IMG/VR virus record: IMGVR_UViG_3300006750_000004
Span: 1 to 64,000 of that record
Origin: a virus
Length of the DNA: 64,000 bases
Direction: 5' to 3' (one strand)
This document shows, one piece after another, positions 38,401-63,257 of the stretch. The position numbers and the translations under genes are program-made. Under the pieces are notes generated by a model. That model saw only the letters and a program-made list of their open reading frames with translations, made no database searches and was not told the DNA's origin. How positions within the stretch are numbered: position 1 is the first letter of the stretch; every line of letters begins with the position of its first letter.

Positions 38401-39033
38401 TTAAGCCTTCAAGTATTCATAGCCTGGCCAATCACGCACATCTTGTAATAAGATCTTTATTTTATTGTGCTCAATAGTCTCTCTAGTATATCCAACATTC
38501 CAATCAGGACCGATTTCGGGATCTGGATAAAGATTTAGGCCATCAATATCGACTTCAAGCATAGAACAATTCCCGCACATACAAGGATGGTGTGGACTAC
38601 CCACAGCACTAGGCATATGAGGATCTATAAAGTGACCGAGAAGATTATTAACAGCTTGTTTATCTAAAAACAAATAAATGCGGCCTTTTTCATTGGGTCT
38701 CAGACCTTTGGTTTTGATAGATGATAAATTTTCGGTTGGTGTGATATGGAATGCAAAACCGGTTGTTTGGAATGATTTAGTATCAGTAATCACAATTCGT
38801 AATGAATAATACTTCTTGGGTCCGCCAGAATGATATGGATTTGTTAACTCTTCCGATCCGATTAAATCCCAACCAATTTTGGTTAATTCTTGGCCCAATG
38901 CCTTCGTAGGGGGCGACTCAGAATTAACCCATATGTGGTCATCAAATGAACCCTTGATAAGAACTTTACCAAGATGTCTCTTGATAATTTCTAAAGCATC
39001 ATTCTTAGATTCACAAATACTTCGTAGTTTCAT
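38401..39033 (-). CDS. Tpt1/KptA-like ADP-ribosyltransferase-fold protein
   Basis: FHIT..ENL.SI.TKGLRP, RIYL, LEVD, LYPDP; N-terminal MKLRSICES. Confidence 0.6.
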   Translation of the reverse strand: MKLRSICESKNDALEIIKRHLGKVLIKGSFDDHIWVNSESPPTKALGQELTKIGWDLIGSEELTNPYHSGGPKKYYSLRIVITDTKSFQTTGFAFHITPTENLSSIKTKGLRPNEKGRIYLFLDKQAVNNLLGHFIDPHMPSAVGSPHHPCMCGNCSMLEVDIDGLNLYPDPEIGPDWNVGYTRETIEHNKIKILLQDVRDWPGYEYLKA

Positions 39034-43192: not shown

Positions 43193-45019
43193 CTACACCA
43201 CTTCGGTAATCTGAGAAAACCGATTGGTCCGAGTGACCCGAAGTTCCTTAGGGAATGTATCATACATCAAGTTCCGGTGAGAGATAATTAGAATTGTCTT
43301 CACCTTGGGAGCCAGATCATTCTTGATGATGTTGATGAGCGAGTCAATGCCGTCATCATCAAGACGGCCATCCACCTCGTCCAGCACTAACATATTGCAC
43401 TGACGACCATACATTTGTTCATGAAAATCGAACATTGCCAACATAAACGCGACATCCGTTCTTTTTCTCTCACCGCCTGATTCGAATTCATATCCCCACA
43501 AATTACTGGTAATACCCAACGCGGGCGTCAATTCAATCTGGACATCAAGCCCGAACACGTCCAGATAATGACGTAGTCGACTATTGATAAATGGAACATG
43601 TTCCTGGAATACAAAACTCTTGATCTTAGTTCGATCATTGTATGCTTTATAAATATAAGCATAATGCCGATTCAAGAAGGTCTCTTGTTCAATGTCCTTC
43701 TCTAGTTTAGTGATATCCTCACCATGCTCCTCTACGGATTTCTTGGTTTCGGCAATAGTAACAGTATGTGGGTTCTTTTCTTTCTGGATTTTAGCGGCGT
43801 CGGCCTTAAATCGGGCCATGGCTTTATCGTGGCGTTCCCACGATGAATGGGTGTCCTTGGCGGCCCGTATGGTTGTCTTGGGCTTTTTATCAGCCAATTG
43901 ACCTTCAGCCAATTTAATGGTTTGGTGGGTTTTAGTGAGATCTTCCTGGTGCTTTGCGAGTTTGGTCTTCTCTTCCACCAATAATTTCTTAATCGGATCA
44001 ATCTTAGAGGCTGTGTGGGCTGTTGGTACTTCCTGTTCGCAGGCATTACATATCTTCCCTGCTTTAGCCCCCCAGGTTTTGATCTTCTTACTTAGTGATT
44101 CAACAGTTCCTTCAATAGTAGCAATTAGACGGGTTGTGACATTGAGTTTGGTCCGAAGTGAGCCGACGTATTCTTCGACTTTTTTAACCACGTCCCATTT
44201 GGCTTGTAATTTTTCCAGGTTTGGTCGCTCGATGGCGTCTCGTCTCTTTTTCTCGTCTATAGCGGTCTGGAGTGATTCAGTGACTCGACGGTCACGGTCT
44301 TTACCATAATTCTCGGATGCGGCGGTTAGACGTTCTATCTCTTGGTTGAGCCGCACGATATTTTGGTTGAGCGTATTAATCTGACCACGTTTAGTGTCGA
44401 TACTACTATCAAGTTGACCACACTTACCTTTAGCATTCTTGGCGTAATAGGCGAACCGGTCTACATGAAGCACTCTTTCAATCGCTTTTTTACGTGTTGA
44501 ATCAGCCATCTCCATCCACGGTTTACCGTATTGGTTGAAGAATATGGATCCACAGAATACTTCCCAATCCAGATTGAATTCTCGATTGAGCTGTTTTTGT
44601 TGATTCTTCTGAGTGGATAAAGTCTCACTCGTCAAAGTGATCTCATTGCCGTCTTTAACGAAGTGTAACTCATTGTGGCCGCCAGATTTTCTAGTCCTGG
44701 TTATAAAGTCGCCGTTGGTGAATTCTAGACGTGCTACACAGTCTTTACCGGTGAAATAATTGACTATTTTATCACCAGGACTGCTAGAGTGCATGGTCCG
44801 ACCAAAAAGGACCCATTGAATAGCATTAACTACCGTAGACTTTCCGGCACCATTGGATTTGGTGATTTGTAGATTGGCACTATTATCGTATAGTGACTTA
44901 TCACCATCCACCACCTCTCCGGTAATGAGGCATTGGCCTAGTTCGTCCAGGTTTAGTACCGTCTCGTAATCGCCATACGACATGAAATTCTGCCAGGCGA
45001 CTGTCTTCAGCTCAAGCAT
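43193..45019 (-). CDS. sbcC: SbcC/Rad50/gp46-like recombination ATPase
   Basis: NFMSYG, Walker A SNGAGKS, Zn-hook CNAC, coiled coils, signature ESGGE, Walker B LVLDE, ISH. Confidence 0.92.
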   Translation of the reverse strand: MLELKTVAWQNFMSYGDYETVLNLDELGQCLITGEVVDGDKSLYDNSANLQITKSNGAGKSTVVNAIQWVLFGRTMHSSSPGDKIVNYFTGKDCVARLEFTNGDFITRTRKSGGHNELHFVKDGNEITLTSETLSTQKNQQKQLNREFNLDWEVFCGSIFFNQYGKPWMEMADSTRKKAIERVLHVDRFAYYAKNAKGKCGQLDSSIDTKRGQINTLNQNIVRLNQEIERLTAASENYGKDRDRRVTESLQTAIDEKKRRDAIERPNLEKLQAKWDVVKKVEEYVGSLRTKLNVTTRLIATIEGTVESLSKKIKTWGAKAGKICNACEQEVPTAHTASKIDPIKKLLVEEKTKLAKHQEDLTKTHQTIKLAEGQLADKKPKTTIRAAKDTHSSWERHDKAMARFKADAAKIQKEKNPHTVTIAETKKSVEEHGEDITKLEKDIEQETFLNRHYAYIYKAYNDRTKIKSFVFQEHVPFINSRLRHYLDVFGLDVQIELTPALGITSNLWGYEFESGGERKRTDVAFMLAMFDFHEQMYGRQCNMLVLDEVDGRLDDDGIDSLINIIKNDLAPKVKTILIISHRNLMYDTFPKELRVTRTNRFSQITEVV

Positions 45020-50098: not shown

Positions 50099-50329
50099 AT
50101 GATCCAAAATATCATCAAACAGTTCGGGCGAGGTGAAATCACTCTCACAGAAATGTGGAAACAAATCGACAATATATTAGACATTCATAATTATCATAAG
50201 ACCTTTACAATTTCTTCTGAATTAGATGGTTCATTCACCAGAAGAAATCGCACACTAATTAGTGACACCCATATGGCATTGGCTCCTGATGACATGCCTG
50301 ACATGCCTGACATTTCTGCACAGACGTGA
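50099..50329 (+). CDS. Hypothetical protein
   Basis: 76 aa, AAGGGG SD; 9-bp repeats (DMP) at the C-terminus. Confidence 0.45.
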   Translation: MIQNIIKQFGRGEITLTEMWKQIDNILDIHNYHKTFTISSELDGSFTRRNRTLISDTHMALAPDDMPDMPDISAQT

Positions 50330-50348
50330 TCAGAGCCGAGACTTAAAC

Positions 50349-51632
50349 ATGAATTACTTTGAACTTGAATTATCCCGTGTGCTTGGGGAAGCATTACAAG
50401 ATAGTGGTCTGGTTGCACAAAAACTTGGCATAGATCTAGAAGTATTGCAACAGATCTTGGATAAAACGGACCCAACTGCGCACGGCAAGTATGCACAATT
50501 TATTGCTAAGTTGATGCTGCGAAAGCTTGTAAATCTTCCAAAAGATCGTGAACGAGTGTACCAAGCTCTAAGTGCGTTCGATAAGTTTAAAAAACACATT
50601 AAGCTCAAGGATATCAATCAATACAAATCTCTAGAAGATCTTGAAAAAACAGTTGACCCTTTCTTAGCAAAGATCTCTAACCGAAAAGGTGGTTCTGGAG
50701 ATATCTTTGGGCTTTCTGGAGTGACCCAAATCGATCGAGAAGGTGATTTCAGTCTGACAAAAGTTAGTAACCGCCGGTCACTAGAAGAAATTTCGAAAAA
50801 CACTAAATGGTGCACAAAAGCAAAGCTTGGCAAAGCTTTGACGTATCTCAAGACGTATAATCGCCTCTATCATGTTTTTTATAAAAACAAACCTGTCTTG
50901 ATGCTTACTCCGGACCTCTCCCAAATCATGGATCATGATAATGAGCCATATAATTTCGAAGATAAGAGAGTAAATCGGCTTATTTCATTTCTCAAGCCTT
51001 CCTGGTTACCAGAGGGGGTAGGTGAATATGCGACGTATTCTGTCTTTGCTGATGTAAGTCCTGAATTCATTCAGCAATATATTGTACTAGAGATACAGGA
51101 CGAGGTCGCGAATAGCATCAAGCGGTTCAATCAGGCACAGGAAAGGATGACCCCCGGCCCAGCGAGCCGTGAATCGCATGTGGGGCTACCTGTTGGGCCG
51201 AGGTGGAAAAGGACAATGCAATGGTCTGACTCGCATGATCGCATAGTGGAATCTTGTACTCCGAAAGCCAAGCATATAATATATAAAAAATTCAAATTTT
51301 TTGCGTACATGAGTACGGATGGCCAGCCAGCCCACGTCAATGGCTGGAGAAGCCCATCACGCCCGGTGGATGTGGCGGTTGGACTCAATCGATTCTACAT
51401 TCTCAATTATGCTTCTATGCCTCTTTATAAAGCACTCGTAGAAGCTGGTGTCCCTAATGATGAATTGCCGCGTTTTCGGAATAGGGCTCGGTCGGCTTGG
51501 AAACCTTATAAAGCACTCGTAGAAGCTGGTGTCCCTAATGATGAATTGCCGCGTTTAGAAGAGTCTAACTTTAGTCTTTCCGGAGAGCGCTGGTCGCTCG
51601 TGAATGCGCGCCCGCGCGCGCGCGGCTACTGA
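50349..51632 (+). CDS. Large-phage family protein (DPT..KY / KDINQYKS / TKWCT motifs)
   Basis: Motifs recalled from a multicopy jumbo-phage family; C-terminus has a duplicated peptide. Confidence 0.6.
   Translation: MNYFELELSRVLGEALQDSGLVAQKLGIDLEVLQQILDKTDPTAHGKYAQFIAKLMLRKLVNLPKDRERVYQALSAFDKFKKHIKLKDINQYKSLEDLEKTVDPFLAKISNRKGGSGDIFGLSGVTQIDREGDFSLTKVSNRRSLEEISKNTKWCTKAKLGKALTYLKTYNRLYHVFYKNKPVLMLTPDLSQIMDHDNEPYNFEDKRVNRLISFLKPSWLPEGVGEYATYSVFADVSPEFIQQYIVLEIQDEVANSIKRFNQAQERMTPGPASRESHVGLPVGPRWKRTMQWSDSHDRIVESCTPKAKHIIYKKFKFFAYMSTDGQPAHVNGWRSPSRPVDVAVGLNRFYILNYASMPLYKALVEAGVPNDELPRFRNRARSAWKPYKALVEAGVPNDELPRLEESNFSLSGERWSLVNARPRARGY
51425..51556 (+). repeat. Two perfect 51-bp direct repeats separated by 30 bp
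   Basis: 51425-51475 equals 51506-51556; encodes YKALVEAGVPNDELPR twice. Confidence 0.95.
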
Positions 51633-51840
51633 TGAAATCCTATCGCGCTCCTCAATGGGCACGCCCCTAGCGACGTCCTAAATACGGACGTGCTTCTTCT
51701 TGAATTCGGGCGTTGCCGATAGTGGTGTCAGTCTTGATTAGATCAATGGCTATCAAGACCATGGTTGGACATTGCTTGAATTTAACCAGTACGAATCCGC
51801 TGCAACAATGTAGAAACTTAACTTTCGTACAGGAGATCCT

Positions 51841-52629
51841 ATGGGCTTTTTCAGAATGCCGGATATTTTCTATACCAAACCGGCACCGCCAACTCTCTTC
51901 AAGGAACGCTACGGCAAGAAGCCGATGCAGACCATCAACGTCCGAATCCCGGACGGCGACGGCCCCTTCCCCACGATCTTTCTTATCCACGGAGGCCAAT
52001 GGAAGAAAGCCTACACTCACAAGCAGATGGAATACCTGGCCGAAGAACTAAAAGCCCAAGGAATCACTACCTGCAACCTCGAATTCAAAAGACTCGGACA
52101 CATTGACGGCGGATATCCAGGCACCTTCCGCGACCTCCTAGATGGCATAGCATACTGCCTCCAACACGCCAACGAATGGAAGCTAGACACTAATAAGCTC
52201 TCAATTCTTGGTCACTCATCAGGAGCCCACCTAGCATTCTGCCTATGCGGAGCTAAAGACTTCGACGGGCATGCCCTCAGCCCCGACAGTGCCTTAGGCT
52301 TCACCCCTTACTCTGCGATCGGCATCGCTGGTGTCTACGATCTGCGAAACGCCAGAGAGGGCTTACAGACCCCGATCAACGATTTCTTCGGCGATCACCC
52401 CAAGCTCTCACCAATTGAAATGCTGCCGACCGGAATCCGGCAACGGCTCATTGTCGGCGACCAAGATAAGCTGACCGAGCAAGCCCTCAGCTACGTCGAA
52501 GCAGCCCAAGAAGCTGGAGAAGACATCACCTTCACTCTGGTCAAAGGTTGCTCACATTTTCGGGTCATTGATCCAACATTCGAAGGATGGGCGACCATCC
52601 TAAACGCCATCACCGAAATAACCAAGTGA
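51841..52629 (+). CDS. Alpha/beta hydrolase (HSL-like esterase)
   Basis: IHGG.W, GHSSG, GDQD, HF; AGGAG SD. Confidence 0.88.
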   Translation: MGFFRMPDIFYTKPAPPTLFKERYGKKPMQTINVRIPDGDGPFPTIFLIHGGQWKKAYTHKQMEYLAEELKAQGITTCNLEFKRLGHIDGGYPGTFRDLLDGIAYCLQHANEWKLDTNKLSILGHSSGAHLAFCLCGAKDFDGHALSPDSALGFTPYSAIGIAGVYDLRNAREGLQTPINDFFGDHPKLSPIEMLPTGIRQRLIVGDQDKLTEQALSYVEAAQEAGEDITFTLVKGCSHFRVIDPTFEGWATILNAITEITK

Positions 52630-52859: not shown

Positions 52860-52974
52860 CCACAGATGGCTGCACCGACAACATTAACACAGCATACCAG
52901 ATCTGTAACAGTTCCAATAGGCCAAGGCACATTTTTGACACCCGGCAAGACAAAATCATCTACAGGAGCTACTG

Positions 52975-53190
52975 ATGAAAACTTCTGACGACGAACTGGC
53001 TGTCCGTAAAGTGAGTGAAGAGTTGCTCGACGCAGCCGTCCTCACTGAGAGCGCACTAGTCCACTTCGAAGACATCATCGTATCAGAACCAAGCGACAGT
53101 TTCGCCGCCGCTGTGATCCTCGCCCTCAAATCCGCTCATAACGTAATGAGCAAAGCATCCGACGATCTGACGAAAGTAGTGGGAGAATGA
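52975..53190 (+). CDS. Hypothetical helical protein
   Basis: AGGAG SD, 71 aa. Confidence 0.6.
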   Translation: MKTSDDELAVRKVSEELLDAAVLTESALVHFEDIIVSEPSDSFAAAVILALKSAHNVMSKASDDLTKVVGE

Positions 53191-53616
53191 TCAATATGCG
53201 ATTTCCTGGAATCCCTGCCATTGTTGCCAGCTAATAACATTCCAATTATCGCCATAATTGATTAGCCAAGATACACCATATGTGTCAGTTACCCAAATCA
53301 CAAATAGATCGTTAGTGAAATTTGGATCGCGTCCTGGAGTTATAACACGTCCAACTGGGAGGGTGGCGAAGTAACTGGGTACGACTGGAACGTCCTGATC
53401 CAACTCACCAAATCGACGACCATCAGGAAGTCCTTCTAGGATCCCATGTTTGTCGACAATATTGATCACGCCATTATTCTCTATTGCTTTGATACCCTCT
53501 TGATGGAAATAAGCAGCTATTTGTTCGGCTTCTTGTCGATTAGAACCATCATCGAATTGGTCGTTGTCTTCGAGACCGTCGTAGTCGGATGATTCGGTGA
53601 TATATTTAAGTTTCAT
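53191..53616 (-). CDS. YxGLED-tag family protein (1 tag)
   Basis: MKLKYITESSDYDGLEDNDQF followed by a unique domain. Confidence 0.75.
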   Translation of the reverse strand: MKLKYITESSDYDGLEDNDQFDDGSNRQEAEQIAAYFHQEGIKAIENNGVINIVDKHGILEGLPDGRRFGELDQDVPVVPSYFATLPVGRVITPGRDPNFTNDLFVIWVTDTYGVSWLINYGDNWNVISWQQWQGFQEIAY

Positions 53617-54422
53617 TAGTACTCGGCTGCACTGAAGATGTCTAATATTGCTTGGATGTCTTCTTCTTTGAGTTCTGGGCCGTTCCAGTCGTACCCAGTT
53701 ACTTCGTCACCCTGAATGGCCAGCCAGCCCACGTCAAGGCGGTCGTAGTAGAGAGTTAATCTACCTATGAATGGTTTGAAAGTTGGGTCAGGACTTCCTG
53801 CTTCTTGAGTAGCCAATAATTCAGCTTTTCTGGCTGGGTCTATATCCACGGGCTCGGGGTCTGCCGCATCACCGCCAGCTAGGGCATCGCCAGCTACGCG
53901 CGCGCGAATATTATCCACCATTGTGGTGCCGGGTTGTCCGGCTACTTGTATTTCAATAATCCAGGATCGTGATCCTTCTTCATTCTGGTCTTCTGGAACT
54001 GATGTTACATCTATTTGAACCCACCTGTCCATCATGTCGACAAGATGGAGACCCTCTTCACCGTGTGGGTCGTAGAATCTGTCGTTGTCTTCGAGACCGT
54101 CGTAGTCGGATGATTCGGTGAGCTTCGGACGCTTACGGAGATCCGAAGGGAACGCTGATTTTATACATTTTTTACATTGTCCAGATGACCCGAAACTCGG
54201 CAGTTCGCCACAAAATCCACAAAACAGATAATCACATTCAGTACAAGAAGCAAGGGATCGTTCATAACCACTCACATCACAATAATCACAATTTTCCATT
54301 GTATCTTGATCATCGTCATCTGGTTCCTCGATGAATTCGTCGGCGTCTTCGAGGCCGTCATAATCAGATTCGTCCGGATCTTCCGAAATCATTCTGGCTA
54401 TTTTTTTAGGGTCAATTTTCAT
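53616..54422 (-). CDS. YxGLED-tag family protein (2 tags; Zn finger plus second cargo)
   Basis: MKIDPKKIARMISEDPDESDYDGLEDADEF, four CxxC, KLTESSDYDGLEDNDRF. Confidence 0.75.
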   Translation of the reverse strand: MKIDPKKIARMISEDPDESDYDGLEDADEFIEEPDDDDQDTMENCDYCDVSGYERSLASCTECDYLFCGFCGELPSFGSSGQCKKCIKSAFPSDLRKRPKLTESSDYDGLEDNDRFYDPHGEEGLHLVDMMDRWVQIDVTSVPEDQNEEGSRSWIIEIQVAGQPGTTMVDNIRARVAGDALAGGDAADPEPVDIDPARKAELLATQEAGSPDPTFKPFIGRLTLYYDRLDVGWLAIQGDEVTGYDWNGPELKEEDIQAILDIFSAAEY

Positions 54423-54459
54423 ATCCGTCTCGTCAGTAAGCTTCAATGTTCTTGGCGTA

Positions 54460-55953
54460 CTATCGCCCGTCATCTCGTCGTCGCCAATCGAGTCGCTCTG
54501 CCTCCTCACAATTCGGACATCGCTCGCAGAAGGGACCGTGGATACAAGAACAAGAGAGAGGTAAGGCCGTAGTGCACCATTGACAATTCCAAAAATCACT
54601 TTGTTCTTGTTTTTCTACACATACATCGCACCACATTGTGTTGCAGGAGGCGCAATAAACACCGTGATTAATTATTGCAAGGGGGGAATCCCCCGTAGAT
54701 TCATCTTCTACTGGTGTGCCACACGTCGTGCATGGTGCACTATACCCTTCCGCATCGCTAAACTCATCGGCATCTTCAAGCCCCGCATATTCGCCAGACT
54801 CTCTAATATTGCTCTCGCGGGCGAAGTCTTCATCAGCTATGCAGTCTTGGCAGATATCAAGCGGGGATATTCCCCGCCATCCTGCATGTGAAGTACAATC
54901 GTCACACATTGATTGATTGCATTTGTAGCAATGTGTGACACGATCCCCTTCTTGCCAGGCAGTTCCACACCAACAAAAAGAATTATCTTGAAATTCATCG
55001 GCATCTTCAAGCCCGGCATATTCATTGGCATCTTCATTCACATTTTCAGGTCCAAGAGAACCATGTCCTTGGCAGTAGTCAGTCCGCTCCCCACAATCCG
55101 GACACGTCTCGCAGTATTCCGCATCGGGATCGCAAAATTCGTCGGCGTCCTCGAGTCCCTCGTATGATTCGTTTACGTTGCGTTTATTGGCGGAAGAGAT
55201 CCATTGTTGACGATTTGAGCGTCTAAAGAATCCTAATGGCCCTTCCCGTCCGTTGAATTCTTCCACATCCTGGTCGTTGGCGACCAGAAGTGCGCCGAGG
55301 TTCTGAATGAATTCTTCACTGTCCAAGTACTCTTTACATGATCGACAATATTGATCGTCCTGCTCTAGATCGTTAGTTCCACACACGCCGCAAACATTTG
55401 GTTCGCCGAATTCGTCGGCGTCCTCGAGTCCGGCATAGTCGGATTCGGTAATATGCTTGAGTTTCATTGGAGACCGACGCGCCTCGGACAACTCGCCGTC
55501 GTTCCAGAGATCCATATCTGGCGGCACAGTTTCCTTATAGTGAGCGAAAGCAATATCTTGGATGGCATCTCTTAGGATAGAGGGCTTTGATCCCAATTGG
55601 GGATTTTGGTTTTGGAACCATTGTTCATATTTGGGGTATTCGGCGAGAATAGCGTCTTTAATGCTATCTAGTTCTGAACACCAGCGACATTTGTCAAGGT
55701 CGTAGTCATTTCCGACAGCCCAAATTGGTGGGCCTGTACGAACTGGCTTTTCGAATGCTTCCGATCTGACGAAGATTATTACACTGTCAATATCCCTACT
55801 TTCTTGTTCGTACATGGTGTGAGCAGTGAAGAGATATGGTCCTACTTTCACTGGGCCATAATTATCTTGTTGCCATTCAGCTACGTCGTCAGTGAATTCG
55901 TCGGCGTCTTCGAGGCCGTCGTAGTCGGATTCGGTGATGTGGCGAAGTTTCAT
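54460..55953 (-). CDS. YxGLED-tag polyprotein (5 tags, multiple Zn fingers)
   Basis: Five Y[DAE]GLEDADEF motifs; internal MKLKHITE; many CxxC pairs. Confidence 0.8.
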   Translation of the reverse strand: MKLRHITESDYDGLEDADEFTDDVAEWQQDNYGPVKVGPYLFTAHTMYEQESRDIDSVIIFVRSEAFEKPVRTGPPIWAVGNDYDLDKCRWCSELDSIKDAILAEYPKYEQWFQNQNPQLGSKPSILRDAIQDIAFAHYKETVPPDMDLWNDGELSEARRSPMKLKHITESDYAGLEDADEFGEPNVCGVCGTNDLEQDDQYCRSCKEYLDSEEFIQNLGALLVANDQDVEEFNGREGPLGFFRRSNRQQWISSANKRNVNESYEGLEDADEFCDPDAEYCETCPDCGERTDYCQGHGSLGPENVNEDANEYAGLEDADEFQDNSFCWCGTAWQEGDRVTHCYKCNQSMCDDCTSHAGWRGISPLDICQDCIADEDFARESNIRESGEYAGLEDADEFSDAEGYSAPCTTCGTPVEDESTGDSPLAIINHGVYCASCNTMWCDVCVEKQEQSDFWNCQWCTTALPLSCSCIHGPFCERCPNCEEAERLDWRRRDDGR

Positions 55954-56004
55954 TGATGCTCCAGAATTTCATTGTATCTTCGCCCAGATGGTGCCGGTAT
56001 TTAA

Positions 56005-56625
56005 CGAGTGACGGTAGCCCAACTGCCGTCGACATAGTGGTGACGTTTACCACGAATGATTTCTGCTAATCTTGATCGGTTGGAGCATCGGTTCTTATGG
56101 TGTTCTTGTGGCTTCCTTCGGGGAGTCCGGGTCTCGACAAAGTCGGGTCACCTGCTTCCAACCACCTTACAGGACGTAAGGCTTAAAAGAAACACTGGGC
56201 CTATCTGATAATGATTATCGGCTGCCCGAGATTAAGATGACCGCAGGCTTGGTGAGAACATTGTTGGGGTTACCCAGTGTACCAGCAGACAGATTTGAGC
56301 GTCTAAAGAATCCTAATGGCCCTTGTGCAATTATTCAAGATAGTCCGAAGCTCAAGCGTAAAGTCTGTAAGCATTGGCAGTTGTAATATTTCATCAAGTA
56401 ACTCGACGTCCTTGAGAATGCCGAACCTGATAGAGCATTCGGACTCCCTGGCGGGAGTTGATGACGGCAAGGATATGGACCAGGGGTCGACCAGCACAAT
56501 TCTCCCCAAATCGATTTTAGTGTTGGAGCTTTCCTGAAATCTGAGAGCGGCAAGTCCGCTAACCCGCTTAATTTGTCAGAGACTAAATGAAAGTTTTTGG
56601 CGGTTAGGACGGGGGGAAACGATGT
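56005..56625 (+). ncRNA. Candidate large structured non-coding RNA (~620 nt)
   Basis: No credible ORF; more than 10 helices, a C(UUCG)G tetraloop, long-range pairs; G-U pairs favour the + strand. Confidence 0.6.
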
Positions 56626-56644
56626 CTATCTATAATACTTTCAA

Positions 56645-56791
56645 ATGACTAAAATCCAGAAATTGGAAGCCCCTGACTTTCTAATAGCTCTAAAGCTCAC
56701 ACTATTAATATCAGACCACGCTGGGGCAATCGCTGACACGTTGTTTTTATTGGACAAAGCTGGGCAATGTGCAGTCTATCGAAGGGACTAG
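56645..56791 (+). CDS. Small hypothetical protein (48 aa)
   Basis: MTKIQKLEAPDFLIALKL...; TATAAT at 56631; below the track cutoff. Confidence 0.35.
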   Translation: MTKIQKLEAPDFLIALKLTLLISDHAGAIADTLFLLDKAGQCAVYRRD

Positions 56792-57081
56792 CCATTATGA
56801 TTCTGCTCGATCCTCGCCAAATCATCCTTGAAGTACTGCTGGCAGGAATGGCAGACAATCAGTTGGCCAGATGGATCTTTTAGATTGAAATTGCTGATAC
56901 AATCGCTGCAGAAGTATGCATTTCGGCATCCATCACAACGGAACAACATATGTATTCCGAGTCCGCATGCGTCACATGTTTCCTTATCAACGAACTTGTC
57001 ATCGTCTTCGAGGCCGTCATAATCAGATTCGTCCGGATCTTCCGAAATCATTCTGGCTATTTTTTTAGGGTCAATTTTCAT
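56788..57081 (-). CDS. YxGLED-tag family Zn-finger protein
   Basis: MKIDPKKIARMISEDPDESDYDGLEDDDKF plus four CxxC. Confidence 0.75.
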   Translation of the reverse strand: MKIDPKKIARMISEDPDESDYDGLEDDDKFVDKETCDACGLGIHMLFRCDGCRNAYFCSDCISNFNLKDPSGQLIVCHSCQQYFKDDLARIEQNHNG

Positions 57082-57550
57082 GAATTATACGCCTATTTAT
57101 CGGAGGTTCGCCGGGGAGCCAACCATGATCGTCGGCATACCAAGCACGACCACCTGCCCCGTTTTTGGTCACAATGGCCCATTCATTTTCATTATCGATT
57201 TCTATTTCATAAGTATTATCGATCCCCCAATGTTCGTTTTTAGGATTATCTATTGTTGTTATATAACTATCTGGTTCTGACACCTCGTCTTCGTCATCTC
57301 CAGAAGGGAAATCAGCATCTATATATAATACTCCAAGCTTACCATGGCCCGCTGATACATATCCAGCTTCAACATTATAATGATTGAGAAAGTCTGCAAA
57401 GTTACCATTTTCATCCCCAAACTCATCGGCATCTTCAAGCCCCGCATATTCGTCATCTTGTTTGTTAGATATGTATTCATCGGAGCGATCACTAGGAATA
57501 TTCGGATCTTCCGAAATCATTCTGGCTATTTTTTTAGGGTCAATTTTCAT
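57071..57550 (-). CDS. YxGLED-tag family acidic protein
   Basis: MKIDPKKIARMISED...EYAGLEDADEF. Confidence 0.75.
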   Translation of the reverse strand: MKIDPKKIARMISEDPNIPSDRSDEYISNKQDDEYAGLEDADEFGDENGNFADFLNHYNVEAGYVSAGHGKLGVLYIDADFPSGDDEDEVSEPDSYITTIDNPKNEHWGIDNTYEIEIDNENEWAIVTKNGAGGRAWYADDHGWLPGEPPINRRIIHEN

Positions 57551-57639
57551 TTGCAAGCCTTATAATATAGAACTTTTTGATCACCAAGGGCCTGCTTCTC
57601 TAGACCATCTTTCCCAGGTACCCTCTTCTATTTCGTATT

Positions 57640-58143
57640 TCACACACGGTTTGTGCTGGCGGCAAGTTGTGCTGCGACGATTCGTGCTGCAATAATATTG
57701 GCAGCTACTGTGGGTTTGGTTCTGAGTGATGCTTGTGCTTGGGAGGTGAAATTAGCGACTATATTATCACCAATTTGTTGGAATTTATCGATTCCGGCTA
57801 GTCCATTATCAGCTCCGGCTGGAGAGCCATCCCGAAGTCGATTCCCGCCGATTCCATATGCTTGGCATGATTTAGCTAATTCATGTTCGATTAATTTTTC
57901 TAGTTTGATTGTCATTTCTTCTGGTGATTTGTTGATTATCCATTCGCGTAGTGGTCGGTCTTCGATACAATCGGTGCATACTTCTTCTGGTTCATGTTGC
58001 CGATGGGAGTATCGCCATCGTATTATATCTGCTGCATTAGATCCTATTCCGCAATCGACACATCCATCCGAGAATTGGTCATCGTCCTCGAGACCATAGT
58101 AGTCGGATTCTTGGTCGTTTTCGATTATGTGTCGTAGTTTCAT
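57640..58143 (-). CDS. YxGLED-tag family protein with Zn ribbon
   Basis: MKLRHIIE...DYYGLEDDDQF, CVDC..CTDC. Confidence 0.72.
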   Translation of the reverse strand: MKLRHIIENDQESDYYGLEDDDQFSDGCVDCGIGSNAADIIRWRYSHRQHEPEEVCTDCIEDRPLREWIINKSPEEMTIKLEKLIEHELAKSCQAYGIGGNRLRDGSPAGADNGLAGIDKFQQIGDNIVANFTSQAQASLRTKPTVAANIIAARIVAAQLAASTNRV

Positions 58144-58183
58144 ATTCTAATTTTGGCGGGATGTAGATAAAAGATATGATGAA

Positions 58184-58227
58184 ATTTTGTGTGAGAAATG
58201 AGTATATTTTGTGTGAGAAATGAGTAT
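58184..58227 (+). repeat. 22-bp tandem duplication spanning a start codon
   Basis: ATTTTGTGTGAGAAATGAGTAT twice. Confidence 0.92.
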
Positions 58228-59971
58228 GGCAGATAGTTGTGAAACCAAACCATTCCTGCCACGAAAGGGATCTGAAGGGGATGAGGTTTGTGACAAGTAC
58301 GGGAATCGTTGGAAGTATGATCTAGAGAGTAATGGTTGGATTTCTTCTGGCACGATTACTGATACTCCATTAGTCACAGAGAAGATAGATGGATTGATTA
58401 CATCTGATGCTTTTTCCAATCTTCGGAAATTGCAGACGTACGTTGATCTGGATCCGGACCTCAACACCTTTAAGATGCTCCCTGGTAGGGATGCATATTG
58501 GTACTATTTCCGATCCAGCGATAAGCTCTTCCGGTTTAGGCAGGAAGGAGAAGATTGCCTCCGTGTCGAGGTGGATAAGGGGCGGTTTTTTCAAATTTTG
58601 ATGAAGGAGGTGTGCCCCGGTACTAAGGGGCCAAAGGGAGAGAAGGGCGATAAAGGATTGCCGGGTAATGTTGGGACGGCGGAGGTTTGCTTTACTCCGT
58701 CAGCGATTAATGGCGATCAGATGGATTTCGCCATTTTTACCCCGACTCCGTTGGTTGAGAATGGTCCGATATCCCTGCCCGGTGGTGTTGTGCCTAATGT
58801 CTCTGTTCGGTTGTTTGAAGCAACTATCCCGATTGGTGCGACAGCTACGCAACAAGACCAGATGCAAGATCTGGCTATCTTCTTCAACAATCATGATCCA
58901 CGAGACGAGATACTTCCCAAATTCCAGGCTACTAGGGATTTGTTGCGGAAACGCAGTATGGGAATTATTGCTCAGGATAGTTTGTGCCAGATTCCTTTGA
59001 GTCAGGTTGCTGTTTTACCGTCTGGCACTACGTTAGCTGCTGCACCAAGTGTTACGGTTGAGGTGAATCCGGCAAATCCGTCTCAAGTCACTATTAGTGG
59101 TACTATTCCGGTTGATAATGTCCGTACTGCTAATTCGATTCAGTTTGATCCAGAAACGAATATTGCATGCGGTTCTATTATTTTGGAGCCAGGTAATCAA
59201 TGGTCTGACTTGGAAGCTGATGATTGGTGTATCAAGTCTCGTCAGAAAGGGCCGAATGGTCTGAAGGGGGATGCTGGAGAGTGTCGTATCAAGATCGTTG
59301 AGTGTTTGATCGATGATACGAATATTCGTGCTACGTGTCCTATTGTTAATGCGAGACTCGATTGTGATCGTGAGATAATTTATACCTTATGTTCTGATTT
59401 ATTGACAGAAATCTGTGTCGATAAAGTTAGTTTGCTCCCTGAGTCGACGACACTGGCGAATACCAATGCTTTTAAGAGTGTTTTTGCTGCGGCAGAGATG
59501 ACTCTTGAGGAATGTAAGAGAATCAACCGCTACAAAGTGGGATTAGAGGCGGATGAGCTGCCTGAACTTGATTTGTTGCATTGGGACCCACAACCAGGTT
59601 GTTCTACAAGGAGGCATTATGACAGACACAAGTTTAATTGGATTCCGGACACTGACCTTCCAGCATGTGATTCAACCGCTGCTTGGTTTGGGCCTGATAC
59701 GGTTCGATCTGGGAAGTATCCGCATGAGATTGTCATACCTCCAGAACCGCCAGTTGACGAGTGTTGTCAGGATGAATTCTTCTATTGTCCCAATGTTCAG
59801 GAAGCACCATGCACTGATGACCCGCCATCACCGCCATCACCGCCATCGCCACCGTCATCGCCGTTAGCGGCAGCAGCGGGTCGTGCGGAGGTAGGCGATA
59901 TACCGCTTGGTGGGAGACCCTCTTCTCCTCAACTTCAAATGGGTACGCGTAAGTGGCAGGTAAGGACTTAG
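58220..59971 (+). CDS. Cys-rich virion structural protein with short collagen-like segments
   Basis: GTKGPKGEKGDKGLPG, KGPNGLKGDAG; DKYGNRWKYD; PPS repeats. Confidence 0.65.
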   Translation: MSMADSCETKPFLPRKGSEGDEVCDKYGNRWKYDLESNGWISSGTITDTPLVTEKIDGLITSDAFSNLRKLQTYVDLDPDLNTFKMLPGRDAYWYYFRSSDKLFRFRQEGEDCLRVEVDKGRFFQILMKEVCPGTKGPKGEKGDKGLPGNVGTAEVCFTPSAINGDQMDFAIFTPTPLVENGPISLPGGVVPNVSVRLFEATIPIGATATQQDQMQDLAIFFNNHDPRDEILPKFQATRDLLRKRSMGIIAQDSLCQIPLSQVAVLPSGTTLAAAPSVTVEVNPANPSQVTISGTIPVDNVRTANSIQFDPETNIACGSIILEPGNQWSDLEADDWCIKSRQKGPNGLKGDAGECRIKIVECLIDDTNIRATCPIVNARLDCDREIIYTLCSDLLTEICVDKVSLLPESTTLANTNAFKSVFAAAEMTLEECKRINRYKVGLEADELPELDLLHWDPQPGCSTRRHYDRHKFNWIPDTDLPACDSTAAWFGPDTVRSGKYPHEIVIPPEPPVDECCQDEFFYCPNVQEAPCTDDPPSPPSPPSPPSSPLAAAAGRAEVGDIPLGGRPSSPQLQMGTRKWQVRT

Positions 59972-59999
59972 CGTACGTAGTTGGAAACATGAGGATTCA

Positions 60000-61418
60000 A
60001 TGGCATCACTTATTGTCTATCTTGCGGATACCAAGTATATTGGTCGTACGTTGGCTGAAATAGCTGACAAAACACCACCGTACTTGCTTGAAGACTTAAT
60101 CATCTGCAATGACACCGGACAAGAATACGAAAATGATCGTGCTCTAGTGATCAATTCAGATAGGATTGGTCGATCTAAATGCTGGAACGAGGCTGCCAAA
60201 CAAGCTACGTCTGACGAATTGGTGTTCCTACGTGATACTACCAAACTGAGTAAGGACTGGTTGCAACCACTTATTTCGAGGGTGAAAGGATCTAACTCCT
60301 TGGTGAGTCCTAGAATTCACACTTTAAATACTGATTTCTGGAGTACCGAGAATGAGTCGTGGCGGCGATTTGGGTGGAGATGGGATCTGTCTTTATATAG
60401 TCGCCAAATGCTTCGGAATTCTGAATCTCCGGCGGTATCTTCTAATTGTATTGCTGTGACAGCTGATTGGTTTGAGCATCTTGGTGGGTTTGATGAGGGG
60501 ATGGTTGCTGGGGTTGGTGAGGATATTGAGCTGTCGATTCGGTCTTGGTTATTCGATGGGAAGGTCGAGGTTGAGGATGATAGTTTGATTGCGGTTCGGT
60601 CTGAGATAGACAATAGTCGGCATACGATTAACAATTTGGCGAGGATTGTTGAGATTTGGATGCCAAAATATTCCAGCCGGTTTTATTCTGCCAGGGATGT
60701 GAAGCCGAGTGAATTGGATACAGGTAAGTTGTCTAATCTGATGATGCTTCAAGATAGACAAATCCACAAGATTTCATGGTTTCTTGAGCGTTGTCAGCCA
60801 GAGCTTGGTGATGTATATGACTTGAGGGGGACGGCGTCTGGCAAGTCTGTGGCGGTTATTGGTCCTGGTGCTTCGGTGGATTTGATTGATCCGTCATTGA
60901 TTTATCGTCATGATTTAATTATCTCTGTAGATTATATGGGGATGGCGTTTGAGTCTGATTATGTGGTTACGGATTTGTCGCATGTGGCGGTTGAGTTGAG
61001 GTCGCGGTATCGGGACAGGCAGTTTGTGTTGCCATTGGCTTTGGCGGATCGGACTTCGGCGGAGTTTATTGCTGCTGGTGAGGTGGTGGTTGATTGCTAT
61101 CAGTTTGAGTTGTCTGGTTTGCGTGGTAGAGTGATTTCTGATTCTCCTCCATTTTGCAATTTTGAGCAGTCGTTGCATTCGGCCGTGAATTTTGCTTTGT
61201 TTTTGAACCCTAGGACAATTTCATTATTCGGGTGTGATAATAAAATTGTGGGGGATAGGAGTCATTCGGCGAAGATAGAATATTATGATGATGGTAGGTT
61301 GTGGCCGGATTCTGATGCTACTCGGCGGAAGTTTGCGTATTCCGAGTTTGGTATCGGCCAGCTTGGGAACCTTGCTTATTCTTTGGGTATTCCACTAATC
61401 CGGATGAATCATACATAA
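60000..61418 (+). CDS. GT-A glycosyltransferase (ppGalNAc-T-like) fused to a Maf/DUF115-like domain
   Basis: VSPRI, LGGFDEGM...GEDIELSIRSWL.DG, NLARIVEIWM; then AVIGPGAS, AVNFALFL....SLFGCD. Confidence 0.72.
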   Translation: MASLIVYLADTKYIGRTLAEIADKTPPYLLEDLIICNDTGQEYENDRALVINSDRIGRSKCWNEAAKQATSDELVFLRDTTKLSKDWLQPLISRVKGSNSLVSPRIHTLNTDFWSTENESWRRFGWRWDLSLYSRQMLRNSESPAVSSNCIAVTADWFEHLGGFDEGMVAGVGEDIELSIRSWLFDGKVEVEDDSLIAVRSEIDNSRHTINNLARIVEIWMPKYSSRFYSARDVKPSELDTGKLSNLMMLQDRQIHKISWFLERCQPELGDVYDLRGTASGKSVAVIGPGASVDLIDPSLIYRHDLIISVDYMGMAFESDYVVTDLSHVAVELRSRYRDRQFVLPLALADRTSAEFIAAGEVVVDCYQFELSGLRGRVISDSPPFCNFEQSLHSAVNFALFLNPRTISLFGCDNKIVGDRSHSAKIEYYDDGRLWPDSDATRRKFAYSEFGIGQLGNLAYSLGIPLIRMNHT

Positions 61419-61420
61419 CC

Positions 61421-61744
61421 ATGGTAGATATTGTAGTTTCAATCTTTTTGATGGGGACCTTGGTGTGTGAGATCGCTGTTGTGGTTTTGGCTTACCGGGT
61501 CGTGTCTAAGATTGGAAGTATTCCCGCCAGTACTTTGAGAGACATAGCAAATGCCTGGAGCGAACGACGAGTTGCTCCGGTCGATGAAGCATCAACTGGA
61601 TATAACGAGAGCGAAAGCAGACAGCGAGCAGCCACAAAAGTCGAAGAAATCCCGCCAGAAATCTTCGCACCAAGTCTCAAAAAACCGCCAAGGCCCGAAG
61701 GTGGTTTCGGCTCTCGTGTCAGTAAAGATGATGGCGATCCATAA
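61421..61744 (+). CDS. Single-TM hypothetical protein
   Basis: N-terminal hydrophobic helix. Confidence 0.55.
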   Translation: MVDIVVSIFLMGTLVCEIAVVVLAYRVVSKIGSIPASTLRDIANAWSERRVAPVDEASTGYNESESRQRAATKVEEIPPEIFAPSLKKPPRPEGGFGSRVSKDDGDP

Positions 61745-63257
61745 TTTTTCCAAAAAGATAAGAGTCCAAACCCAAGAAGTAAAGGTAGTACAATGCGAGA
61801 CGAAACCGTTAGCCGAGATGCCGCAGCTAAAAGCGAGTGCTGTGGTGGAGCCGAGAGTCAAGAAACTCCCCGAGAGGAAGAAGGCTGTTGCGGCAGAAAA
61901 GCTTCCAACCAAGAAGCCGATTCTGGGTGTTGTGGAGATGACCCCACTCCTACCAAGCTCCAATCCAAAACTTCCACAGACACCACTCCCACCAAGCTCC
62001 AATCCAAAACTTCCACAGACACCAAGTCCAAGCCCGGTGGCTGACGCCCTTTCAAGCGATAGCCGAGTTTCGGCTAATCCGAACTATCAAGTATACAGGC
62101 TCGGTGATGTCTTCACCGGTAGGAGAATATTGATGAAACAATTAGGGATTGATATCGGGACCAAAACTGTTGTCGTTGCCTATCGAGGTGATGACGGGGA
62201 AATTGGATATATCTCCGAAATCAATGGATGGTGGCCATTCGAGCGAGCCACAAAGTTCATTGAGAAACTTCTGGCCGATCCGACTAAAGTCCGATCTGAT
62301 GGTACGCAACGACCAGCTCGTTGGATTAAGATGCCAGAAACCAATCAAATCGTCGTATTAGGTAAAGACGCGGAAGAATTTGCGTATGCTAAGAACGACA
62401 CCCTACGCCGCCCTATGGCCGAGGGCGGTATCTCTGCAGACGAAGAGGCGATGATTATTCTTGCTAGTATCGTCCAAGGTCTTATGGAAATGGCGGAGAC
62501 TGAGTTAGGTGAATTTGGTGATTCAGTAAAGATTACTTATTGCACCACTGCCCCAGCCATCAATAAGAGATCCTCTAATGTAGAGTATCACGAGAGAGTC
62601 GTGAACTTGATCATCGAAGGATATGAAACCAAGGCCAAAGTTGAGCTGGTTGGTCCATACGACGATCATCAAGGTGCTATAAAAGAATCGCACGCTATCG
62701 TCCTGGATATGGACGATCAACACGGCAATGAAGGTACTGGCATTGGCATCTCGTGGGGGGCTGGTACCGTCACAGTCAGTTACGTGAAATGGGGAGAGGA
62801 AATCTATTCGTTCTGTTGGGTTGGTGCTGGTGACTGGATTGATAATGAAGTGGCTAAACGGCATGGGTACGAGCCTGATGTTATGAGTATAATGAAAAAG
62901 GCTAAGGAAACACCTACTACCGTTGCCAAGCGGAAAGAGACAGTTGACCTAACCCCAGGAATAGAACCAGAAGATCGCGTTGGCCTAGATATTGTGCTAC
63001 ATTATGACGTGCTCATCGCCAAAGTCATTGAAGGTGTGGTAGCCGGATTTGTAGAGAATGAAGACAGAGCCCGTATTGATGGTGCTGTCAATATTTATAT
63101 GGCTGGTGGTACTAGCTCCCCACAAGGATTCGTGGAACGTGTGGCTGCCAAGTTTGACGAGAAAGATCTACCGTTCGAAATCGGTCAGATTTTCAAATCT
63201 GATAAGCCTCTCTATTGTGTGGCTACTGGTTGTCTCAAGGCAGCTGAAATGTTCTAA
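61728..63257 (+). CDS. Actin-like ATPase (MreB/ParM superfamily); core starts at 62133, with an in-frame Pro/Lys-rich extension
   Basis: GIDIGTKT, LRRPM..G, ESHA, GISWGAGT, AGGTS, PLYCVATG. Confidence 0.82.
   Translation: MMAIHNFSKKIRVQTQEVKVVQCETKPLAEMPQLKASAVVEPRVKKLPERKKAVAAEKLPTKKPILGVVEMTPLLPSSNPKLPQTPLPPSSNPKLPQTPSPSPVADALSSDSRVSANPNYQVYRLGDVFTGRRILMKQLGIDIGTKTVVVAYRGDDGEIGYISEINGWWPFERATKFIEKLLADPTKVRSDGTQRPARWIKMPETNQIVVLGKDAEEFAYAKNDTLRRPMAEGGISADEEAMIILASIVQGLMEMAETELGEFGDSVKITYCTTAPAINKRSSNVEYHERVVNLIIEGYETKAKVELVGPYDDHQGAIKESHAIVLDMDDQHGNEGTGIGISWGAGTVTVSYVKWGEEIYSFCWVGAGDWIDNEVAKRHGYEPDVMSIMKKAKETPTTVAKRKETVDLTPGIEPEDRVGLDIVLHYDVLIAKVIEGVVAGFVENEDRARIDGAVNIYMAGGTSSPQGFVERVAAKFDEKDLPFEIGQIFKSDKPLYCVATGCLKAAEMF
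61944..62024 (+). repeat. 39-bp near-perfect tandem duplication (PLxPSSNPKLPQT twice)
   Basis: Read directly from the sequence. Confidence 0.9.

Follow-up and report, generated by a model that had tools for sequence, protein, structure and literature searches.

Why would a phage place one and the same acidic peptide in front of a series of different small protein domains? The question is raised by positions 53191-58143 of a 64,000-nucleotide stretch of viral DNA (the window), which forms the first 64 kb of the 95,725-bp IMG/VR record IMGVR_UViG_3300006750_000004 (here G000; CheckV completeness 26%). In this interval, six co-oriented minus-strand genes bear 11 copies of the tag Y-x-G-L-E-D-x-D-x-F, and an earlier inspection of the letters, here called the sequence-only reading, had already placed the six open reading frames (ORFs), both of their leader types and all 11 tags where we find them. 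The explanation that we favour, and that we would rate at somewhat less than an even chance, is capsid loading of the kind directed by the capsid targeting sequence (CTS) of phage T4, together with processing by the head protease, which would cut the polyproteins into units, and with an acidic module added to this scheme. It is favoured because leader and junction fit the T4 CTS and because the protease family is present.

The tag itself is sharply defined. Across the 95.7-kb record, a degenerate DNA pattern for GLEDxDxF gives 14 matches on the minus strand, none on the plus strand and none with a control pattern; the interval 53191-58143 accounts for 11 of the matches, and a single gene beyond the window, at 82746-83738, for the other three. 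A profile of 30 positions, termed A1 and made from 39 aligned tags, has Y, G, L, E, D, D and F invariant, which amounts to seven of the ten core positions in all 39 copies. The profile search that the sequence-only reading had proposed was run against 1.84 billion representative proteins and returned just 74 clusters at E<=0.001, of whose representatives 69 bear strict tags, 109 in total. An exact DNA scan for Y-x-GLEDADEF adds five other IMG/VR contigs, 17 metagenome loci and one bacterial genome, and the genomic context of the tags is marine huge-phage DNA throughout, with a single Novipirellula gene as the exception. Furthermore, a variant, E-S-E-Y-D-D-L-E-D-V-D-E-F, occurs in nine copies in one protein. 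No family in Pfam, PHROG or NCBIfam, no PDB chain at E<=1 and no report in the literature matched the tag, so the earlier suspicion that it belongs to no described family holds, and it did not turn out to be an already characterised domain; INPHARED likewise contains no cultured relative or deposited phage with a tag protein. All sequencing runs containing the array are labelled as marine metagenome, at least half of its 31-mers being present in 18 of the 20 marine metagenome runs among the matches listed (15 studies in all); no RNA dataset containing the array was found among the runs listed.

Copies of the tag differ in their synonymous codons (GGT/GGC/GGG/GGA, CTC/CTT, GAA/GAG, GAC/GAT and TTC/TTT). 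Conservation therefore acts on the peptide, and the tag is under selection at the protein level; a purely DNA-level repeat was rejected because the copies vary at synonymous sites. A related view, in which the tag DNA acts mainly as a joint where cassettes recombine and are shuffled, and its peptide product has little function, strikes us as extremely improbable. Some tag/leader pairs are 92-94% identical in DNA over 52-95 nucleotides, which suggests recent duplication or gene conversion, and units are found fused, split and exchanged between genomes. Logan contigs also break or fork at the repeated tags, onto other tag genes of co-occurring phages, as a joint of this kind would have it. Most copies, however, share just 60-75% of their DNA sequence, with synonymous differences and an invariant peptide, which argues for selection on the peptide. 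Because the Logan contigs break at the tags, they confirm the cassettes but not their order; every inter-tag piece was recovered at 99-100% identity in contigs of four runs from four studies.

The position of the tag follows regular rules. An [ILV]-x-E site lies at most nine residues upstream of 99 of the 109 tags (91%), compared with 10.5% of control windows in the same proteins; as the copies, which come from 69 cluster-representative proteins, are related, nominal p-values for this association overstate independence. Counted as lying just upstream, the site accompanies 93% of the 109 copies, with a background of 10-17%. The (I/L/V)-x-E site that had been noticed before each tag of the array is thus found well beyond it. 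At the P3 position of this junction, I is the most frequent residue (55), followed by V (24) and L (18), and P1' is mostly S (50) or N (20). The gap from x-E to the Tyr ranges from 0 to 6 residues, and junction and acidic peptide are therefore two separable sub-motifs. Not one of the 69 proteins has a C-terminal tag; in 68 of them the last tag has 31 or more residues after it, and in 45 the first one starts no later than residue 21; the cargo between tags is 37-201 residues long. Two other roles were considered and rejected: that of a C-terminal tail of the preceding cargo, since no protein ends with the tag, and that of a 2A-like skipping peptide, since the motif differs and the system is bacterial. 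Units that exist as single genes in one genome are fused in another, and the second unit of the longest array gene retains an internal MKLKHITE, evidently a remnant of gene fusion; both observations show that the units work either singly or fused.

Three array genes begin with the leader MKL(K/R)(Y/H)I(T/I)E and the other three with MKIDPKKIARMISE. Genes for a split DnaE-type polymerase, UvsX, DnaB, SbcCD-like proteins and numerous enzymes of sugar pathways lie in the window, and by this gene content the record is a fragment of a huge phage. A syntenic relative, G001, has 83 ORFs in common with it at a median identity of 69%. The DnaB of G000 is 80% identical to that of the complete genome G306, with which G000 is syntenic over at least 20 kb, and median identity to G306 is about 57% both for G000 and for a third tag-bearing record, G002. 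G306 (408 kb) and G307 (354 kb) are complete sister genomes, and the tag-bearing records are 26-41% complete. Judged by these comparisons, the records are fragments of related 350-410 kb genomes of one clade with a T4-type head, G000/G001 covering other parts than G002. A placement of G002 as a distant lineage (about 29% identity) was rejected, since G000/G001 and G002 cover different genome parts and both are about 57% identical to G306.

Neither G306 nor G307 contains the tag, as judged by the A1 profile, which did find the single bacterial copy, and by six-frame regular expressions. The leader MKLxxIxE is present in both, on small unrelated proteins (10 in G306, 7 in G307). It also heads unrelated tagless proteins in the tag-bearing phages, for example at 38401-39033 and 69546-70007 in G000 and in several cases in G001 and G002, and on real ORF starts it is found three to eight times per record, compared with zero to two times for a reversed-pattern control. 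Homologous proteins of 575 and 653 residues in G001 and G002 start with either an MRLSDIAE-type or an MITEDPD-type N-terminus. MKLxxIxE is thus a clade-wide signal, distinct from and wider than the tag. A core leader-bearing gene, as shown by its presence in G001, G306 and G307, encodes a conserved protein of about 80 residues (G000 82470-82700 (-), L009:2471-2701, outside the window), which has a GTG start, begins (M)KLRQINEN... and ends GVP-x-KPR-x-RQYLGME-x-RPG-x-IRL. In several of the leader-only proteins, namely those at 38401-39033 (-), L010:5546-6007 (-), G306 78820 (-) and G307 216864 (-), we also observed motifs resembling those of the ADP-ribosyltransferase fold (H-x-T ... S-I ... 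G-L-x-P or Y-H-G-T). Among named Atlas clusters, Arr-ms, Tox-ART-HYD1, DarT/PARP and RNA 2'-phosphotransferase come nearest, at no more than 0.87-0.88, Pfam gives no match, and in a single-sequence AlphaFold2 (AF2) model of the leader-only protein P0317 the putative ADP-ribosyltransferase half stands at a predicted local distance difference test score (pLDDT) of about 30. If this assignment were true, it would provide a parallel to T4 Alt.

A T4 gp21-type protease, which the sequence-only reading had invoked, is indeed encoded in the clade. The head module of G002 comprises the large terminase (TerL), a portal, a 1019-residue protein, a Peptidase_S77 prohead protease, a scaffold-like protein and a gp23-like capsid protein, the protease matching PF03420 at 67.8 bits, phrog_207 and PDB 5JBL (T4 gp21) at E 3.5e-8. 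The protease is absent from the 26%-complete G000 record itself and is present in G306, with which G000 is syntenic. In the first 95 residues of the capsid proteins of G002, G306 and G307, the sites L-x-E, P-I-T-E, I-H-E, I-L-E and I-(L/F)-E are conserved; the G002 protein has five such sites in this part and one in its other 445 residues, and the scaffold alignment contains an invariant V-T-E and T-L-x-E. From this homology and motif conservation, the clade very probably uses T4-like maturation cleavage after I/L/V-x-Glu.

A different protease has also been considered, namely a dedicated and highly specific cytoplasmic enzyme of the TEV/3C kind, unrelated to the capsid, which would recognise the whole 13-residue tag. 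Such an enzyme would suit the unit junctions, each of which bears a long and nearly invariant sequence that resembles a recognition site, and the polyproteins of up to nine units with the tag N-terminal to each unit, and G002 encodes a candidate in a 511-residue ORF at 43246-43770 (-) (L063), whose match to Trypsin_2 is sub-threshold (23.4 bits, cut-off 27.6). A second protease common to all tag-bearing genomes was however not found, Peptidase_C14 being seen in none and Trypsin_2 only in G002, although this absence means little in records as incomplete as given above. A dedicated protease also leaves unexplained that the majority of tagged genes consist of one unit whose tag is N-terminal; we consider it unlikely. 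The Trypsin_2-like ORF of G002 lies a few kb from a 1312-residue protein that starts with three tags.

The comparison with T4 brings leader, junction and head protease together. The T4 CTS, MKTYQEFIAE (about 10 residues), loads internal proteins into the scaffolding core and is removed by gp21 (PMC8442874). Its targeting and processing residues are separable, Asp in place of the junction Glu stopping the processing but leaving the targeting intact (PMC9026906), and the internal-protein locus of T-even phages is hypervariable, with the CTS alone conserved (PMC3012670; PMC9026906). The parallel that the sequence-only reading drew to the MK...E leader of T4 internal proteins fits, since MKLxxIxE has the same short N-terminal MK...I-x-E shape (PMC8442874). 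As in T4 (IPI-III, Alt), the leader is carried by otherwise unrelated, hypervariable and non-essential-looking proteins; the clade likewise combines a gp21-family protease with a gp23-like capsid protein whose propeptide is rich in I/L-x-E, and the two parts of the module are separable, as are targeting and processing residues in T4 (PMC9026906). Unlike in T4, an invariant acidic module of 10-13 residues follows the junction here, in a system known from sequence alone, and this module is repeated internally, up to five times in G000 and nine times elsewhere, so that polyproteins result.

Resemblances to other packaged proteins are looser. The phiKZ-like giant phages SPN3US and 201phi2-1 also package many proteins, and their head and ejection proteins have N-terminal propeptides that are conserved between diverged paralogs and removed by a relative of gp21, in many cases through more than one cut (PMC5694885). 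Their propeptides, however, exceed 100 residues and are family-specific, whereas the element described here is a portable cassette of 20 residues; moreover, their cleavage follows S/A/G-x-E, with a small P3 residue, and they have no acidic Y-x-GLED tag. No sequence relation between the two was found. By analogy, the tag may also be likened to encapsulin cargo-loading peptides and microcompartment encapsulation peptides, in which a short conserved peptide on a flexible linker directs diverse cargo to the inside of a protein shell, a shell that in encapsulins shares the HK97 fold with phage capsids. These peptides differ from the tag in being usually C-terminal, hydrophobic, Gly-rich or amphipathic, uncleaved and without tandem repeats.

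The favoured explanation, capsid loading with head-protease processing, would involve an address module of two parts. The first would be the hydrophobic-x-Glu junction, which has the form of the sites that T4-type (gp21/S77) prohead proteases cut and at the N-terminus lies within MKLxxIxE or MKIDPxxIAxxI(S/T)ED; the second would be the acidic-aromatic (S/D)-x-Y-x-G-L-E-D-A-D-E-F, which would be retained at the new N-terminus of the cargo after the cut. The proteins would be brought into the assembling prohead, where the head protease would cut after each I/L/V-x-Glu and thereby free single domains. The freed domains, many of them putative two-zinc cross-brace fingers and others acidic and Cys-free, would then travel with the DNA into the next host, and the acidic peptide would act as a common handle for one partner. 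If leader and junction are indeed a loading and clipping signal, sequence alone would tell which proteins are packaged and injected in a widespread clade of marine phages of 350-410 kb, and the lineage would show two features not described for phage internal proteins, namely the polyprotein organisation and a second conserved peptide kept on every mature cargo. The tag is short, portable and sharply defined, and is a candidate tag for packaging or docking and a possible key in searches for effector genes.

Several observations weigh against this explanation. The tagless G306 and G307 have capsid proteins that are 87-90% and proteases that are 77-78% identical, which shows that the head machinery can do without the tag. 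In G000 and G001, the genes that surround the tag genes serve replication and recombination. Both tags and cargos carry a net negative charge, unlike the internal proteins of T4, which are highly basic (PMC8442874) and DNA-associated. Of low weight is a single-sequence AF2 model of a leader-only protein in which a confident helix of a folded domain begins with the leader. Finally, T4-type cleavage needs I/L-x-E alone, and the invariant acidic part must, on this comparison, have a partner or role of its own. It could dock on a head component, dock on a host hub, serve as a specificity element for a protease, or be a site of modification.

Combining loading with docking leads to a more specific proposal, in which the cut domains would expose an N-terminal S-D-Y-x-G-L-E-D-A-D-E-F and, as shuffled and injected zinc-finger effectors, would all address one conserved hub of host or phage through this portable docking handle. 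We regard this combination as rather unlikely; if true, no other phage would be known to encode an effector library as polyproteins and to deliver it by the capsid.

The structure of the cargos bears on a further alternative. The sequence-only reading had counted at least seven CxxC-rich cargos, and the window contains seven Cys-rich cargos with 4-13 Cys each, the remaining ones being Cys-free; the net charge of every in-window cargo is between -3 and -22. An AF2 model of the 497-residue protein with five units, made with a 27-row alignment, has a mean pLDDT of 56, with Cys-rich cores at residues of approximately 180-220, 320-370 and 430-450 reaching 73-92. Four of its five tags lie below 55, and the second (173-182) is intermediate at about 63-73. 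Foldseek matches are weak, the best being PHD and FYVE fingers at E 0.1. The cargo of the gene at 56788-57081 passes the zf-MYND cut-off narrowly (23.1 bits, cut-off 22.7) with a partial model (1-25 of 39), the other cargos remain below cut-off, and cargos of the relatives give weak matches to IBR, B-box and HIT profiles. As in cross-brace fingers of the MYND, PHD, FYVE, B-box and IBR type, the 8-Cys cargos have about 40-70 residues and four CxxC-like pairs; the matches are nevertheless all marginal, and those families are mainly eukaryotic. Tentatively, the models suggest that the Cys-rich cargos are small two-zinc cross-brace fingers joined by flexible tag linkers.

Proteins of this kind may also act uncleaved in the cytoplasm, as host-takeover proteins that dock through the acidic peptide, a short linear motif, on one conserved hub of host or phage. 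Several tags in one protein would then confer multivalency, and the leader would belong to the motif or serve some other purpose. We hold this to be possible but doubtful. The invariance of the core goes far beyond the needs of T4-type cleavage, the models place most tags in low-confidence, probably flexible linkers, as is usual for docking motifs, the finger-like cargos resemble protein-interaction modules, and the neighbouring genes in G000 and G001 serve replication and recombination. Furthermore, a gene of Novipirellula rosea that starts with MNEYDGLEDADEF stands outside any recognisable phage head context. A free docking motif, however, should occur at C-termini too, where it is absent from all 69 proteins, and the view leaves unexplained both the upstream [ILV]-x-E association (about 91-93%) and the independent, clade-wide MKLxxIxE. 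The single bacterial match, moreover, is near what the DNA scan would yield by chance (about 0.5 matches by our own calculation). It is a 125-residue ORF (NZ_BAABGA010000008, L044:3949-4326 (-)) between an MBL-fold hydrolase and WYL-type regulators, the sole match among 301 genomes of its order, and may reflect a planctomycete host, gene transfer or chance. If the peptide does dock on a host hub, it would mark a conserved vulnerability of a marine host.

Regardless of the role of the peptide, the tag genes are, from comparison of the genomes, fast-evolving accessory insertions in variable slots. The main array occupies a slot between Mre11-like and collagen-like genes, in which G001 has a different, shorter set and G306 no tag gene. 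In a second slot, G306 has a conserved 180-residue gene followed directly by the conserved 80-residue leader gene, and in G000 and G001 a three-tag gene is inserted between the two, in G001 together with a second tag gene. Orthologous cargos of G000 and G001 are 35-51% identical, compared with a genome median of 69%. The comparison of cargo content among relatives that had been proposed earlier thus yielded a different set in G001 and none in the complete sister genome G306. The overall interpretation offered by the sequence-only reading is partly supported, namely by the novelty of the tag, the variation of the cargo, the gp21-type protease, the I-x-E sites of the capsid protein and the shape of the leader; its "diversifying anti-defence library" is conjecture, and no cargo matches a known anti-defence protein.

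Across lineages, the neighbourhood analysis found no non-tag gene family that recurs beside tag genes. A Methyltransf_24 gene (G000 88573-89157 (+), L009:8574-9155) is present in G000, G001 and G002 and absent from G306 and G307, a pattern from too few genomes to carry meaning. Together with the invariant Tyr in its acidic context and the glycosyl- and methyltransferase genes around the array, this distribution would agree with a tag that is a substrate or recognition motif of a modifying enzyme, acting on the Tyr or the acidic side chains, or else a solubility or metal-binding element, and in either case not an address. We deem this highly unlikely: the co-occurrence amounts to two independent lineages against two, with incomplete records, and Methyltransf_24 proteins are common sugar or small-molecule methyltransferases that nothing ties to the tag.

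The individual genes of the array, all on the minus strand, illustrate how leader, tag and cargo are combined. Gene 1 (53191..53616; 141 residues) has the leader MKLKYITE, one tag at residues 12-21 and a Cys-free, acidic cargo of 120 residues, whose identity is 38% with the third unit of G001 59199-60536 and 40% with P0035; a homologue search with the whole protein recovered only itself, and the ESM Atlas gave no usable match. Genes 1 and 2 share a stop/start overlap, TAATG. Gene 2 (53616..54422; 268 residues) probably starts at the ATG at 54422 rather than in a longer GTG/TTG ORF, and comprises MKIDPKKIARMISE, a tag and an 8-Cys cargo, followed by KLTE-SSD, a second tag and a Cys-free cargo of 152 residues; in DNA sequence, the leaders of genes 2 and 4 are 94% identical. 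Gene 3 (54460..55953; 497 residues) contains five tag and cargo units, with tags starting at residues 11, 173, 264, 312 and 389. Gene 4 (56788..57081; 97 residues) has the leader MKIDPKKIARMISE, one tag at residues 21-30 and an 8-Cys cargo. In gene 5 (57071..57550; 159 residues from the likely ATG start at 57550), MKIDPKKIARMISE is followed by a spacer of 20 residues, one tag (35-44) and a Cys-free acidic cargo; no homologue is present in G001, G306 or G307. Gene 6 (57640..58143; 167 residues) combines the leader MKLRHIIE, one tag (15-24, YYGLEDDDQF) and a 5-Cys cargo, and is 39% identical to its ortholog at G001 57428-57856, again compared with the genome median given above.

Besides these genes, the array contains a conserved non-coding element of about 670 nucleotides (55946..56617, strand unassigned), directly upstream of the gene 3 start. 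It is 75% identical to its G001 counterpart over 687 nucleotides, with 57, 59 and 56 mismatches in the three codon phases and indels that are not multiples of three, and thus shows no codon periodicity. A core of 150 nucleotides persists in the same slot of the tagless G306. An Rfam scan of 52900-58300 gave no match, and the element is a candidate for a non-coding RNA or a long regulatory leader. An exact direct repeat of 33 nucleotides connects it with gene 3 (55212-55244 inside the gene, 56292-56324 inside the element), and Logan contigs break at both copies. Directly 5' of the ATG of many leader and tag genes in all three lineages, an A/T-rich stretch resembling AAAYATAGAGT is found, for example at 58144-58160; many of these genes have no Shine-Dalgarno sequence, and the stretch is too unspecific to be called a promoter or to date expression.

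In the variable slot of the array, 50262-52629 also encodes an alpha/beta-hydrolase esterase (BD-FAE, E 3e-17) and a 456-residue ORFan whose only homologue, a weak one, is in G002; G001, G306 and G307 have neither of the two. On the other side of the array, the plus strand at 61551-63257 encodes a 568-residue protein that scores 121.5 bits against Volactin, a Pfam family of archaeal-type actin, and is kept in G001.

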